A DNA stretch of 56,496 nt, taken from assembly GCA_964428325.1 (NCBI GenBank), contig CAYRXU010000004.1, positions 1 through 56,496 of the forward strand, read 5' to 3'. The notes under the pieces are model-generated. The model had not been told where the DNA came from. It made no database searches and saw only the letters and a program-made list of their open reading frames with translations. This stretch comes from Candidatus Woesearchaeota archaeon (GTDB lineage Archaea > Nanobdellota > Nanobdellia > Pacearchaeales > GW2011-AR1). Position numbers and translations under genes: made by a program. This document shows positions 23,298 through 41,223 of this stretch, piece by piece (the stretch's first letter is position 1; each line of letters opens with the position of its first letter).

Positions 23298-24485
23298 ATG
23301 GTCTTCAAGAAAGGAGAGCTGAAAATTCTATGGCCTTTCTATCTAGACGCTGCGATTAGCCCACTTTTCTTCTTTATGCCTGCCTTTATGGTCTTATACT
23401 TCAAGGGAATCGGACTTAGTTTATTTCAAGTCGGCATATTACTGGGAATAGCTAACTTAACTTCATTACTCTTCGAAATACCTACTGGAGCTATTGCAGA
23501 CATTTACGGAAGAAAATTCTCTGTGCTGTTAAGTTACTTTCTGCAAGGAATTGGATTTCTCTCACTCTTCTTCATCAAGAATTACTACGCTATTGTCGGA
23601 GTCTATGCACTTCTAGGAATTGCATCTACGTTCTCTTCTGGGGCGAAAGAGGCCTGGGTAATAGACCTAATTCGCGCAAGCAAGAAAGATCTTCAGAAAA
23701 GTTACTTTGTCAAGAGCCAAGCCATTGATAGTGCAGGACTAATATTATCAGGGATTATTGGCGCATATGCCGTCAAATTATTTGGATTATCTATAATCTG
23801 GATCGCTACGTGCATCTCTTTCTTGGCTGCATTCACCATAGTGTTATTCGCTCGTGAAGCTTTTTTGAGAAAGAAAACACCTGACTCCTCTGTTCAGAGA
23901 ATAACAAAACAAGGGTTCAGAGCAATCCAGTACAGCAAAAACCATAGTGTTTTATTCTCGTTGCTCATCATCGCAGCACTTCTAATATTTGCAAGTAATC
24001 TTGGAAGCCAGATAGCATGGCTACCATTATTTGAAAGTCTAGGAATGCAAGAACATACATTTGGCTATTTATGGTCGCTCATGGCGTTAGTCGGAGTAAT
24101 CGCCCCCCTATTTGCCTCAAGATTACTAAAAACATCAAAAGAGAGAAGATTTTTAATAATTACACTAATTCTAGGAACTCTAACAAACTTACTTATAATA
24201 TTTGCTTCTACAAAGTTATTTGCTATAATAATACTGCTTTTTTCAACCCTGTTCTGGGGCATGAGGTTTACCGCAGACAGAATCTATTTCCATAGATTCA
24301 TCCCAAACAAGCTAAGAGCAAGTATCGGGTCTCTAGAATCAATGGTACTTTCTATTGTAGCCATAGTGGGAGTCCCCCTTGCAGGATTTTTAGTTGATCA
24401 CATCGGACCAAAATATACAATAATTAGTGCAACGCCAATATTAATTATAGCTCTGATAATTTATTCTAGAATAAAAGAAAATTAG
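23298..24485 (+). CDS. MFS transporter
   Basis: FEIPTGAIADIYGRK motif A; 12 TMs. Confidence 0.9.
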   Translation: MVFKKGELKILWPFYLDAAISPLFFFMPAFMVLYFKGIGLSLFQVGILLGIANLTSLLFEIPTGAIADIYGRKFSVLLSYFLQGIGFLSLFFIKNYYAIVGVYALLGIASTFSSGAKEAWVIDLIRASKKDLQKSYFVKSQAIDSAGLILSGIIGAYAVKLFGLSIIWIATCISFLAAFTIVLFAREAFLRKKTPDSSVQRITKQGFRAIQYSKNHSVLFSLLIIAALLIFASNLGSQIAWLPLFESLGMQEHTFGYLWSLMALVGVIAPLFASRLLKTSKERRFLIITLILGTLTNLLIIFASTKLFAIIILLFSTLFWGMRFTADRIYFHRFIPNKLRASIGSLESMVLSIVAIVGVPLAGFLVDHIGPKYTIISATPILIIALIIYSRIKEN

Positions 24486-25426
24486 ATATCTTCGTCATCA
24501 ACGCCACTATCGCTTTTTCTCGCACTAACACTGAATCCAACAGGAGCATCGCCATCAAGTGTTTCACCCACACGATCATCTCCAGACATTGATTTATCAC
24601 TCTCTTCCTGAGATTCCTCCGCATCTTTCATGAAAGCCTCAACCTCGGCGCGTCTTCGCTCTAACTCCTCAGAATTCTTCCGCTCGTAAAGGTCCTTCAT
24701 CCACACCCAGATCTCTTCAAAATGTCCCTCTTGTTCAAGCCATACCCTCTGCTGCGTATCAAGATGTAGTAGCGCAGCAAAATCCAGAATGCGCTCGTGC
24801 CGCGTGCCTTCTTTTACAAGATGTGAAAAAGCCAACCTCTCATCCCTTCCCTCAAAAAGCACAAGCAACTTAGCATGAATCTGTTGAATGCGCTCGTGCA
24901 CATTTATCTTATTCTTAGGTAACGCAACTTCAACTTCCCATTCATGTTGTTTCACAAGAATCTCTCGTTTGATACGTCTATTCTCTGTCTTAATTGCCTT
25001 ACCAAGTGCACTCATAAGTTCTTCAAGAGTCACACGCCTGAATCGTGGCAAGGGCGTTCTCGGAACAAGAGCAGGAGCATCACCATCAAGCTCAATCCTT
25101 TCCTGCACATATGGTTTTTCATCATCTTTTGTGCCAAAGAGTATCTCATCCAGCGTAGGAATATCTTGATTTAACACAATCTCAGACTTAATACGTAAAA
25201 GAAGCGAAGCCGCAAGTAAAACCTTTGAAGAAACGAAGAAATTAGCTTCCTCAAGTGCACGTACTTTTTCCAAAAACTTCACGCTCAACAGACACAAATC
25301 AATGTTCCACGGGTCAAGCTGTTCAGTATTAATCAAATCATAGATAATGCTCTGCCAGCTCAGCTTATCCTCAAAAAGAAGCTTGTGGATCTGTTCTTGA
25401 CCTACCTTTTCTACCCCTTCAGACAT
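24482..25426 (-). CDS. scpA: Segregation and condensation protein A (kleisin)
   Basis: LDPWNIDL, AASLLLRIKS, RRVTLEELMSAL, FAALLHL...LEQ. Confidence 0.9.
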   Translation of the reverse strand: MSEGVEKVGQEQIHKLLFEDKLSWQSIIYDLINTEQLDPWNIDLCLLSVKFLEKVRALEEANFFVSSKVLLAASLLLRIKSEIVLNQDIPTLDEILFGTKDDEKPYVQERIELDGDAPALVPRTPLPRFRRVTLEELMSALGKAIKTENRRIKREILVKQHEWEVEVALPKNKINVHERIQQIHAKLLVLFEGRDERLAFSHLVKEGTRHERILDFAALLHLDTQQRVWLEQEGHFEEIWVWMKDLYERKNSEELERRRAEVEAFMKDAEESQEESDKSMSGDDRVGETLDGDAPVGFSVSARKSDSGVDDEDI

Positions 25427-25523
25427 AATAGACTCAAAAGCACTACATTTATATCCCTTTCTTACGCCATAGAAGCCTAAAAGAAAACTGTTCTCATTAT
25501 TAAGTTACAACATAATCGAAAGG

Positions 25524-25531
25524 TTTATATA
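25524..25531 (+). promoter_or_regulatory. TATA box facing a non-coding structured region
   Basis: AAAGG-TTTATATA; +29 nt lands at about 25553, where the terminal helix begins. Confidence 0.6.
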
Positions 25532-25554
25532 TCCCTACAAGTTCGGATTATTAA

Positions 25555-25718
25555 TCACCTCTTTTTCCCAGGAGAGGACGTTTCATCCATCTTTTTGAAG
25601 GGTGAGGCCTCCTCTCTATGGGTTGAAACAGCTATAGAGTTTAAGGAATCGTTCTTCAAAACTTCCAAAAAAGTCCTTGTATAGGCAGGAAAGTGTATCC
25701 GAACGAAGAAAGAGGTGA
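25555..25718 (+). ncRNA. Unidentified structured RNA, ~164 nt
   Basis: 12-bp terminal helix, several internal helices with G-U pairs on the + strand, own TATA box, no ORF. Confidence 0.65.
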
Positions 25719-25742
25719 GAATTCTACTCAAATAAAATAAGA

Positions 25743-25949
25743 TTACTTCTTACCAAACTCAGTATAATTGCACTTACCGCAATGCATTCGATTATCTCTA
25801 TTTGCCAAGAACACTCCAGGACCACAACGTGGGCAGAACGGTGCCCTCGTAAGTTTAGCGCCATCAACCTTGTAGTGCTTGTACTTTGTGCTTGTAGGCT
25901 TGTTCTTATGCGCCTTCTTTCCGCCCTTAGCTTTTTTATCGTCTGCCAT
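25743..25949 (-). CDS. rps27ae: 30S ribosomal protein S27ae
   Basis: CPRCGPGVFLA...RMHCGKC zinc ribbon; position in the operon. Confidence 0.95.
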   Translation of the reverse strand: MADDKKAKGGKKAHKNKPTSTKYKHYKVDGAKLTRAPFCPRCGPGVFLANRDNRMHCGKCNYTEFGKK

Positions 25950-26398: not shown

Positions 26399-26674
26399 TT
26401 AAGCTCTAACCTCCTGGGTCGATCGGGCCTGTTCAGCTAAGTATCCTTGAATTCTGTAAGCTGCGCCAACAACATTAACGCTGTTCGGATCAACGTCAAG
26501 CAAAACAGACTGAGGAATATGATAAGAAGAGCTAACATTATAAGCGAAATCCAGAAAAGCTCCTTTGTGAATAACATCGTCCCGTAGAATAGCCCCAATA
26601 GTCCTACGGTCTTCAGCACCCACATCTAGGATTTCTCTCAAATCTTGAGCGATGACAGCTACTTCAGGATTCAT
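26399..26674 (-). CDS. Hypothetical protein inserted between rpoE1 and spt4
   Basis: ATGA overlap with the rpoE1 stop. Confidence 0.55.
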   Translation of the reverse strand: MNPEVAVIAQDLREILDVGAEDRRTIGAILRDDVIHKGAFLDFAYNVSSSYHIPQSVLLDVDPNSVNVVGAAYRIQGYLAEQARSTQEVRA

Positions 26675-29896: not shown

Positions 29897-29967
29897 TGGA
29901 CCTGAAGGGAATCGAACCCCTGTCCTCTGCTCTGGAGGCAGATATCCTACCATTGAACGACAGATCC
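29897..29967 (-). tRNA. tRNA-Trp(CCA), intronless
   Basis: GGATCTG...CAGGTCC acceptor; anticodon arm TCTGC-CTCCAGA-GCAGA. Confidence 0.95.
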
Positions 29968-30119
29968 GTTATTTCCTAAAAACAAAGGGCTGTTTTAAGT
30001 CTTCGCATCAGAGAGTTTTCAGCTAAAGTTTAAACTTGAAGATGCTCAGAAATGCGACGTCAAAGAAGCATTCCTAACATCGGAAGAACATTTATAAACA
30101 ATTTTACCCCTTATAAGAG

Positions 30120-30536
30120 ATGCATAAAAAAGAGGCTAAGCACACACATAGTGCCCATCATGCAACATCATCTTCTTCACCGCGCCAGCTTGAAGAACGT
30201 TTGATCGATAATCTTGTTCAGTTACAAAAAGTCCATACAGACCTAGCAGACAAGTTCCACGCACTATCAAAGCAAATCGAAAGCCTTGTCGGACTCTTTG
30301 AGTTATCAGCACGGGCATTTGCAAAGCAAGTCAATGTGCCAGGTGCAGAAAAAGATAGAGAATTTTTAGATAAAATAGACAGACTCCTAGATCAAAACAA
30401 GACTATTGCAAAGGGCCTTACACTCATGGAAGAGAAAATGCGTGAAAGGCTCTACGGCACTCAACCGCAAGCATCACCTTCACCATTTTCGCGTCCTGCT
30501 CCAGTCGTTGATGCACGTCCATTGCCACGTATCTAA
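30120..30536 (+). CDS. Hypothetical coiled-coil protein
   Basis: 138 aa; TTTATA 29 nt upstream. Confidence 0.65.
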   Translation: MHKKEAKHTHSAHHATSSSSPRQLEERLIDNLVQLQKVHTDLADKFHALSKQIESLVGLFELSARAFAKQVNVPGAEKDREFLDKIDRLLDQNKTIAKGLTLMEEKMRERLYGTQPQASPSPFSRPAPVVDARPLPRI

Positions 30537-41056: not shown

Positions 41057-41223
41057 GCCTTTGTAGTCTAGTGGTCAAGGACGACGCCCTCTCGAACGCC
41101 GAGCTGCTATATCGCTGAGATTATGCACTCAGTCCATCTTGGACAGGCATTCCTATTTCGGGTTTGCATCTCGCAAACCCTTGGAGAACGGCGTAAACCC
41201 GGGTTCGAATCCCGGCAAGGGCA
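41057..41223 (+). tRNA. tRNA-Glu(CTC) with a 94-nt intron at 37/38 (41095-41188)
   Basis: GCCTTTG/CAAGGGC acceptor; exons match the tRNA-Glu at 1-54; CTCT/GGAG central helix with 3-nt bulges (BHB-like). Confidence 0.9.

Follow-up and report, generated by a model that had tools for sequence, protein, structure and literature searches.

The 316-nt gap between scpA and S27ae in the window (the whole 56,496-nt stretch of archaeal DNA that was analysed) houses an RNA gene, at 25554-25718 on the + strand, and its product, here called anti-SD-tail RNA, represents an uncatalogued small-RNA family that is absent from Rfam 15. Most genomes of the phylum Nanoarchaeota, from Pacearchaeales, Woesearchaeales and their relatives, contain about one copy of it. 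An earlier reading, made from the sequence alone, had remarked that the 5' end of the RNA resembles an anti-Shine-Dalgarno (anti-SD) sequence, and the family is defined by just this likeness: an invariant tail opens with 8 nt, AUCACCUC, that the organism's own 16S rRNA also has at its 3' end, which reads GGAUCACCUCCU. The function of the RNA is inferred and no target has been shown. The reading put first here, with a confidence that falls a little short of even, is that of a trans-acting RNA which masks ribosome-binding sites (RBS) or competes with the 30S subunit via its 16S-like tail.

A stand-alone gene with its own promoter

The source genome (0.70 Mb in 19 contigs, 87% complete) presents the following arrangement around the RNA gene:

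24482..25426, - strand: scpA (Pfam SMC_ScpA), divergent, leaderless and outside the RNA, with its own TATA near 25448-60
25504-11, + strand: promoter upstream element GTTACAAC, N5 before CGAAAGGTTTATATA
25517-31, + strand: BRE/TATA CGAAAGGTTTATATA, a consensus archaeal promoter
25553/25554, + strand: predicted transcription start, inferred from promoter spacing, with the RNA beginning (A)AUCACCUC; conservation begins here
25743..25949, - strand: S27ae (Pfam, synteny), convergent and outside the RNA, last gene of the rpo7-spt4-S24e-S27ae run

A box of the form GTTACAA(C/T)-N4-5-(C)GAAAGNTTTAWATA is also found before several protein genes of the same genome, the ATG of which lies 22 nt past the box; these genes are leaderless. 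Since they begin 22 nt past an identical box, the start of the RNA was put at 25553/25554. The sequence-only reading had claimed a TATA box at the spacing used by other genes of the window, and the position of CGAAAGGTTTATATA bears this out, its spacing being that of the genome's own leaderless genes. By inspection, the promoter box stands at an equal distance in homologues across the order. The segment 25554-25718 (+) is an independently promoted, stand-alone RNA gene. A 58-codon ORF on the minus strand (25555-25731) was tried as a gene and rejected, the indels among relatives not being multiples of three.

Comparison with known RNAs

No Rfam 15 family was found in the window at gathering thresholds, and the locus itself gave no match even at E<=10, bar one meaningless miRNA match; the Rfam matches to mir-247, mir-186, sR20 and rliD were far under threshold. 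Nine distant loci of the family were also compared with Rfam and none matched. Full-text literature searches, the tail sequence included, returned nothing on anti-SD-tail RNA.

Several known RNAs were considered as candidates and rejected. Archaeal SRP RNA (RF01857) has no match here at E<=10 and the genome's own gene lies at C1:20732-20995 (75 bits); with that gene elsewhere, the loose likeness to SRP helix 8 once pointed out is meaningless. The earlier remark that RNase P and 5S motifs are absent agrees with the model searches, as archaeal RNase P RNA (RF00373) and 5S rRNA (RF00001) do not match here and have their own genes at C1:69299-69644 (56 bits) and C3:53321-53435 (64.5 bits) respectively. 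For tRNA and tmRNA, ARAGORN and the Rfam tRNA model give nothing at 25400-25800. As for a box C/D or H/ACA guide sRNA, 25554-25718 is without C (RUGAUGA), D (CUGA) or ACA boxes and without any Rfam snoRNA-type match, and the hairpin is without a pocket. An intact 16S rRNA gene, with the 3' end GGAUCACCUCCU, is located at C1:60471-61906. Because SRP RNA, RNase P RNA, 5S and 16S all sit elsewhere in the genome, a shrunken known housekeeping RNA is excluded. The sequence-only reading had inferred a new or highly reduced housekeeping RNA and had proposed an Rfam search to decide whether it was known. With no match the family is new rather than known, while the notion of a reduced known RNA has to be dropped, and the word housekeeping rests only on the distribution and the metatranscriptome contigs described below, without a function having been shown.

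Secondary structure and its conservation

The + strand at 25555-25718 folds into a three-way junction of -59.4 kcal/mol (z = -4.6), and 0 of 200 dinucleotide shuffles were as good; the fold of the - strand is weaker (-49.2 kcal/mol, z = -3.0). The main helices listed in the earlier reading are present. The RNA, all on the + strand, is composed of the following parts:

25554..25566, + strand: invariant 5' tail AUCACCUCUUUUU, 13 nt, the first 8 nt equal to the 3' end of the genome's own 16S
25567..25622, + strand: long hairpin (covariation, individual folds, models R1 and R2)
25567-69 with 25620-22, + strand: CCC/GGG clamp of the long hairpin, with a small bulge near the base
25571-78 with 25610-17, + strand: helix GGAGAGGA/UCCUCUCU (covariation)
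25580-88 with 25600-08, + strand: helix GUUUCAUCC/GGGUGAGGC (covariation)
within 25567..25622, + strand: U-rich apical loop AUCUUUUUGAA of the long hairpin
25623..25648, + strand: variable linker, with neither sequence nor length conserved in the alignment of relatives
25649..25706, + strand: clade-specific 3' domain, recovered at 22 non-redundant loci that span several genera of the family
25650-54 with 25701-05, + strand: CGUUC/GAACG of the outer stem UCGUUC/GAACGA of the 3' domain (RNAalifold)
25655-59 and 25696-25700, + strand: invariant internal-loop strands UUCAA and UAUCC of the 3' domain
25661-66 with 25689-94, + strand: middle stem of the 3' domain (RNAalifold)
25673-87, + strand: apical hairpin GUCCUUGUAUAGGCA (GUCCUU…AGGCA) of the 3' domain
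25707..25718, + strand: SD-like 3' strand AGAAAGAGGUGA, which pairs with the 5' tail as the terminal helix
25555-66 with 25707-18, + strand: terminal helix UCACCUCUUUUU/AGAAAGAGGUGA, retained in the subclade

The linker carries an insert of ~50 nt in one relative. The hairpin CUCUAUG...UAUAGAG, which had been put forward as competing with another helix, sits in this linker and is not conserved past the closest relatives.

For the long hairpin, 97.3% of the pair cells are standard in an alignment of 43 homologues, compared with 44-61% when the partners are slid by 1-3 columns. The long helix has 17 pairs, of which 14 show compensatory changes (109 cells), and none of 500 shuffles attains any of five measures. 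The 43-sequence alignment was fitted to the model and consequently leans to the structure, but the slid controls are still far lower. With 25 sequences from other orders, the hairpin is 99.7% paired versus 26-60% when slid, with 12 compensatory pairs. As to the 3' domain, RNAalifold on a plain MAFFT alignment of the 22 loci predicts both stems, and 9 of 11 pairs are compensatory. A conserved, covarying structure among relatives, the absence of which would have counted against the sequence-only reading, is thus found in both the hairpin and the 3' domain. G-U pairs make up 134 of the 849 hairpin cells (about 16%). Because these would become A-C mismatches on the other strand, the RNA is assigned to the + strand, as had been argued from G-U pairs that suit this strand only.

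When the 5' modules of 18 homologues were folded one by one, the tail stayed unpaired in every case, leaving 14 free nucleotides followed by one long hairpin. A tail-to-stem pairing that came out of a first MAFFT/RNAalifold alignment of the 5' module was rejected, the hairpin having been misaligned and the pairing not being conserved in other orders. In relatives the 3' half of the terminal helix is (A/G)GAGGUGAU; at the 22 loci with the 3' domain it is (A/G)GAGGUGA(U), an SD-like sequence whose A/G changes opposite U are compatible with pairing. This helix cannot covary, because its 5' strand, the tail, is invariant.

Distribution of the family

Two covariance models were built, R1 from eight sequences, that of the window among them, and R2 from 43 diverse matches; the window sequence reaches 95.9 bits under R1 and 89 bits under R2. 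In the sample from the order, R1 has a match in 288 of 301 genomes (80 of 82 when only high-quality genomes are counted) and in 119 of 122 genera. For the phylum the sample comprised 401 genomes from 280 genera, all of one class, and R2 matches 342 of these genomes and 243 of the genera. A single copy is usual, and some genomes have two or three. A single-contig genome of 490,885 bp, which is taken here to be that of Nanoarchaeum equitans, gave no covariance-model match. In BLAST searches against 60 relatives, the full 165 nt are kept within the genus (76-89% identity), and a 24-nt stretch at the 5' end retains 92-96% identity across the family and the order. In the homologues found by the covariance model the tail is without change.

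The plan shared by the family consists of a promoter, ~22-25 nt, (U/A)AUCACCUCUUUUU, a hairpin opening with CCC and closing with GGG, and then UUU. Membership, as captured by R1 and R2, is defined by a single-stranded (N)AUCACCUCUUUUU directly 5' of a CCC/GGG-closed hairpin followed by UUU, a definition that the RNA of the window meets. The possession of an own BRE/TATA promoter is a further criterion of the family and is also met, with the predicted start at the tail in Pacearchaeales and in several viral copies. Other orders have a shorter hairpin, 45-55 nt overall, often as two tandem units behind an unconserved 35-60-nt leader; in such tandem units a U-tract lies between the two hairpins.

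An exact-pattern scan of one genome each for 185,579 prokaryotic species returned at least 120 stretches. Among the matches listed, nearly all are either titled Woesearchaeota, Pacearchaeota or Nanoarchaeota/Nanobdellota or are MAGs under other labels that share the gene neighbours. One bacterial match, among the matches listed, was not confirmed by the covariance model.

Expression in metatranscriptomes

The organism is found in wastewater and activated-sludge metagenomes, and the RNA is present in assembled contigs from wastewater metatranscriptomes, four runs in all. Contigs span 25479-25720 in a first run and 25445-25720 in a second, and in each case stop within 2 nt of the predicted 3' end, so that an end at ~25720 recurs in two runs. 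In the run with the 25479-25720 contig the flanking genes are not covered by any contig. A 74-nt contig of a relative corresponds to 25554-25624, and the summed depth across the conserved 5' module is about 150. Contigs of the window's own type have a depth of 11-14, compared with 13-54 for the SRP RNA of a similar strain in the same runs. This evidence consists of unstranded Logan contigs, for which depth is a rough measure. The contigs reach 75-108 nt upstream of the predicted start and leave the 5' boundary unresolved; strain variants at 25475-77 that break the assembly possibly lie behind this upstream extension.

Gene neighbourhood and viral copies

The gene neighbourhood, inspected at 174 loci, is steady within orders and different between orders, and it offers no functional link. 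In Pacearchaeales-type loci the RNA gene is flanked by scpA, which is divergent and 100-250 nt off, and by the convergent S27ae-S24e-Rpo7 run, and a PIN-domain gene is near; in all, 88 of the 174 loci have scpA upstream in divergent orientation. In Woesearchaeales-type loci a zinc-ribbon or PLD-like gene is found on one side and a convergent Lon-like protease gene on the other.

The conserved place in Pacearchaeales, between scpA (88/174 loci) and the S27ae/S24e/Rpo7 run, could point to a local cis or antisense element, be it a UTR, a regulator acting in antisense on scpA or the S27ae operon, or a structured terminator between them, and the metatranscriptome contigs, being unstranded and reaching upstream of the predicted start, would allow it. 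Against this, scpA is leaderless and its own TATA stands 22 nt before its ATG, the G-U pairs suit the + strand only, the genes around the RNA are unrelated ones in Woesearchaeales and in viruses, and it has its own consensus promoter everywhere. Given a position that differs between orders and a separate TATA for scpA, the RNA is unlikely to act in cis on its neighbours; the local reading is largely refuted and what is left of it is very improbable.

In IMG/VR the pattern occurs in 19 contigs, of which 17 were confirmed by R2, and the cellular neighbour genes are on none of the IMG/VR contigs with the RNA. The carriers are head-tailed viruses of these archaea, and the flanking genes examined code for a large terminase, a portal and a major head protein (PHROGs E-values between 1e-14 and 1e-60). 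On several viral contigs the RNA lies just upstream of the portal gene, on the same strand, and between portal and terL where terL is present; these and several further viral copies have an A/T-rich, TATA-like box ~25-30 nt before (U/A)AUCACC. Copies equipped with a promoter in viruses argue for a trans-acting, dosage-relevant function. The trans-acting reading is drawn from this viral capture of a promoter-equipped copy together with neighbours that vary between orders.

The presence of copies in viral contigs, two or three copies in some genomes and the 12-bp inverted termini of the element in the window would also suit a MITE, a mobile repeat whose ends would be the 12-bp inverted repeats, or a DNA-level recombination or origin site. 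The element is, however, single-copy and in a syntenic place in its own and most genomes, the inverted termini are missing in most lineages, neither a transposase nor target-site duplications accompany it, and the compensatory changes and G-U pairs point to a folded RNA, so that next to no credence is given to a mobile or DNA-level origin.

The 16S-like tail and its possible partners

Past the 8 shared nucleotides the tail and the 16S end diverge, with CUUUUU in the former and CU-3' in the latter. In the genome, 16 of the 37 occurrences of GGAGGTG have an ATG within 3-11 nt downstream, and an SD motif is found upstream of ~7% of long ORFs versus a background of 2.8%. Because only ~7% of long ORFs have such a motif, most genes are inferred to be leaderless or SD-less. 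The tail is complementary to AAA(A/G)GAGGUGAU, and SD motifs of the GGAGGUG type are in use in this genome. Unbroken pairing of the tail is possible with sequences such as AAAAGGAGGUGA, with one G-U pair, and among the best duplexes predicted for the tail genome-wide, several fall in RBS contexts such as AAAAGGAGGTGAAaccATG. One criterion for an RBS-masking sRNA, an exposed sequence complementary to the organism's own SD sites, is fulfilled.

The exact 11-nt complement AAAGAGGTGAT showed no excess over a reversed control in 151 genomes, apart from the gene itself, and several of these genomes are without any copy of it. Since it is not enriched, pairing, if any, would be at generic SD length only, and in that case the invariant UUUUU and the CCC/GGG clamp need another reason, e.g. 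a protein. Of 31 relatives, 30 have one Sm-like (LSM) gene in their genome, which is compatible with an Sm handle without being proof of it.

Long complements of the tail in the organism's own genome are limited to the 3' strand of the RNA itself and a few ordinary sites. With 12 contiguous pairs and -16.7 kcal/mol, this 3' strand is among the genome's best tail complements outside the antisense strand of the gene itself, and a few chance sites score slightly lower than it. A cis partner at or below -14 kcal/mol exists in 27 of 165 loci, almost all of them of the subclade of the window, and it is in this clade alone that a covarying 3' domain terminates in AGAGGUGA, the SD-like strand that pairs with the tail. 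As the strong cis partner is limited to these 27 loci, the closed 165-nt form is a lineage-specific elaboration, the tail being free in most lineages. Other orders show a weak tendency to an upstream tail partner (20% with z<-2).

No clean correlation between the presence of the RNA and SD usage was found, with few genomes and crude start calls. The presumed N. equitans genome has 0% SD and no RNA, and two other genomes without a match have SD in 9% and 28% of ORFs.

Proposed mode of action

The proposed masking of RBS, or competition with the 30S subunit, would work as follows. The free tail would pair with the purine-rich RBS (…AAAGGAGGUGA…) of the SD-led minority of genes, mostly operon-internal ones, and this pairing would compete with the 30S subunit, shifting translation between SD-led and leaderless messages. 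The hairpin would confer stability and, with the U-tract, may be a protein handle, e.g. for the single Sm-like protein. In the clade of the window, where the RNA is ~165 nt long, the SD-like 3' strand is predicted to pair with the tail, and the seed would then be masked in cis and need opening; alternatively, the RNA of this clade may present an SD-anti-SD-like helix.

The proposal has in its favour that the genome offers SD sites to bind and that the tail equals the anti-SD sequence. Several observations weigh on the other side. The complement AAAGAGGTGAT is no commoner than its reversed control, with the invariance of UUUUU and of the clamp left unexplained, and whether a genome has the RNA bears no clear relation to its SD use, in small samples. 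A virus with an abundant anti-SD copy would also expose its own SD-led genes to it. In other orders the unit lies 35-60 nt inside the predicted transcript, so that the tail is not 5'-terminal unless processed, and in the clade of the window the tail is paired in cis. The metatranscriptome contigs, moreover, are unstranded and extend 75-108 nt past the predicted start.

The closest precedents are the RBS-masking archaeal sRNAs sRNA41 and sRNA154 of Methanosarcina mazei (review PMC5867862). They share with the proposed role a stand-alone gene, an exposed anti-RBS sequence, the RBS of polycistronic mRNA as target and repressed translation, but they are genus-level, condition-regulated RNAs with specific targets (PMC5867862). 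Anti-SD-tail RNA, unlike these, is phylum-wide and present ~once per genome, its seed copies the 16S tail at the predicted 5' terminus, and it has viral copies. In bacteria, the enterobacterial 5'-seed sRNAs RybB and OmrA/B, and the sRNAs with C/U-rich anti-SD loops, RsaE/RoxS and LhrC, have seeds that pair at or near the SD. Their modular design, a single-stranded seed, a structured scaffold and a U-rich end, is shared with anti-SD-tail RNA, whereas they are bacterial, dependent on Hfq or a terminator, and unrelated in sequence. The seeds of these bacterial sRNAs are conserved over families or orders and not, as far as is known, over a whole phylum, and none is known to be identical to an rRNA tail.

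Other possible uses of a 16S-like tail

Alternatively, the tail may stand in for the 16S 3' end, as a decoy or mimic, towards the ribosome-biogenesis or initiation factors that usually read this end, and not be recognised by mRNA; candidates are Dim2/Pno1 (KH), the endonuclease Nob1, KsgA/Dim1, initiation factors and a box C/D guide directed at the anti-SD. Such factors would then be titrated, delivered or regulated by the RNA, and the closed form of the window's clade would imitate the SD-anti-SD helix. Archaeal Dim2 reportedly binds a 3' fragment GGAUCACCUCC, to which the tail is identical over 8 nt. The invariance of the whole tail and clamp fits recognition by a protein better than a short pairing, no long complementary target is conserved, and the gene in Pacearchaeales stands beside the rpo7-spt4-S24e-S27ae run with a PIN-domain gene near. 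The likeness to the 16S 3' end (helix 45 + GGAUCACCUCCU) includes the 8 nt AUCACCUC and a single-stranded position beside a hairpin in both, but in anti-SD-tail RNA the order is reversed (the tail is 5' of the hairpin), UUUUU follows and the gene is a separate one. Helix 45, which precedes the 16S tail, is without a counterpart, and beyond 8 nt the tail differs from 16S (CUUUUU vs CU-3'). No protein partner is linked by neighbourhood, the neighbours varying between orders. A decoy or mimic is considered unlikely, although it keeps a place among the readings.

The invariance of UUUUU would be accounted for by a guide RNP of the U7 type, in which the single archaeal Sm protein sits on a U-rich site between a 5' guide (…CUCUUU…) and a 3' hairpin, and aCPSF1, the CPSF73 homologue, is directed to purine-rich polycistronic sites for 3'-end formation or cleavage. 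U7 snRNA, the ~60-nt guide of eukaryotic histone 3'-end processing, has a 5' guide with CUCUUU, an Sm-type site and a terminal hairpin, and archaeal Sm proteins favour oligo-U. The corresponding elements here are the single-stranded guide, U5 straight before a clamped hairpin and the one LSM gene per genome in 30/31 relatives. The layout is alike but homology to anti-SD-tail RNA has not been shown, and the domain of life and the target differ. The case rests on analogy only, with no cleavage sites or targets known, and Sm proteins occur in nearly all archaea whereas the RNA is restricted to one phylum. A U7-like role is accordingly a long shot.

Significance for the Nanoarchaeota

Conservation across a whole phylum is, to our knowledge, almost unknown among archaeal RNAs other than rRNA, tRNA, RNase P RNA, SRP RNA and guide sRNAs. 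Nanoarchaeota genomes measure 0.5-1.5 Mb and have lost much else; an RNA of ~50-165 nt is nevertheless retained in these reduced genomes, and its unchanging part copies the sequence by which ribosomes recognise messages. Anti-SD-tail RNA resembles archaeal SRP RNA, RNase P RNA and 5S rRNA in being promoter-driven, near-universal, structured and apparently abundant, with a similar depth of conservation. Its most far-reaching interpretation, doubtful on present evidence yet not to be dismissed, is a core translation RNA of the whole phylum, a separate and strongly expressed replica of the 16S tail, probably within a small RNP, that serves SD-led initiation or 16S maturation, was captured by viruses and has a switchable long form. 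If this were true, the RNA would gate or assist SD-led initiation among mostly leaderless messages, or would join in 16S 3'-end maturation. The viruses would have captured it to reprogram initiation, and the self-masked long form of the window would be the switchable version. Phages would offer a parallel, being known to carry tRNAs or ribosomal protein S21.

Even as an ordinary regulator, anti-SD-tail RNA would be a family missing from RNA databases and from DPANN annotation, and covariance models such as R1 and R2 could annotate it in thousands of genomes. Should it act on initiation, it would provide a new and simple route to partition leaderless and SD-led translation in these archaea, and its viral copies would form a new class of virus-borne translation factor.

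Structural RNA and ORF calls in the window and its genome

In the genome of the window (G000), the SRP RNA and RNase P RNA scored under the Rfam gathering thresholds despite full-length matches of both.

G000:C1:20732-20995, SRP RNA, 75 bits against an Rfam cut-off of 96.5
G000:C1:69299-69644, RNase P RNA, 55.9 bits against an Rfam cut-off of 84

These are divergent versions of the two RNAs, and standard annotation would miss both.

Three further calls were made within the window.

29897-30346 (-), 'tmRNA' by ARAGORN, overlapping tRNA-Trp
41057-41223 (+), complete tRNA model aligned by Rfam across 167 nt
26399-26674 (-), ORF of 91 codons between spt4 and rpo7

tmRNA is not known in archaea, and Rfam shows only a tRNA at the first of these sites; consequently, the ARAGORN call is almost certainly a false positive. 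At the second, ARAGORN reports a 92-nt tRNA-Ala at 41132-41223, and the gene may be intron-containing or interrupted. The ORF was without a Pfam match.

T5 run near the sRNA start

An invariant T5 run is present in the sRNA gene (window 25554-25718 (+)) at 25562-25566 (+), only 9-13 nt past the predicted start. Oligo-T is a termination signal in archaea and, therefore, the polymerase must read through this run, or transcription may stop there in some cases, yielding a 13-nt RNA.

Elements neighbouring the sRNA in other loci

Small Cys-rich, zinc-ribbon-like ORFs were observed as the upstream divergent genes of three Woesearchaeales-type loci (L090, L097 and L098) carrying the tandem-unit form of the sRNA, with divergent starts about 100 nt upstream of its promoter and N-termini such as MKKADTARRPGRCHKCV…, MVERKCHKCC… and MDCKNCKEKPCC….

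In three viral loci (L292, L297 and L299), the stretch separating the sRNA copy from the portal gene contains a second conserved element, GTTCACCTCCCTGTGTTTTTGGG, about 60-110 nt downstream of the sRNA copy, and a stretch similar to this element was found in L289. The element, which may be a second, different 16S-tail-like unit or else a part of the portal leader, includes an exact CACCUCC, the core of the 16S anti-SD, and then a U-run and GGG.

Modules of the sRNA 3' part, and duplicates

In several genera of the Pacearchaeales (loci L012, L045, L051, L060, L112, L115, L180, L208 and L213), a small conserved hairpin, AAUCC-NN-UCUAAAAU-NN-GGCAC(GA), follows the sRNA at a distance of 30-120 nt. 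This hairpin resembles the one at the apex of the 3' domain of the window sRNA, AAGUCCUU…AAGGCA. In a different set of genera, AAAAAGUCGUGG…CCACGCAUUAUA is found in its place. Module swapping is evidently how the 3' part of the sRNA evolves. Duplicates were also noted. In two genera (L043 and L052), the linker that joins 5' hairpin and 3' domain in the long form has a second internal copy of UAUCACCUCUU. In a relative of the same genus (G007), part of the 3' domain is duplicated about 1 kb past the full gene, on its downstream side (G007:C20:27380-27448; query positions 112-179, 86% identity).
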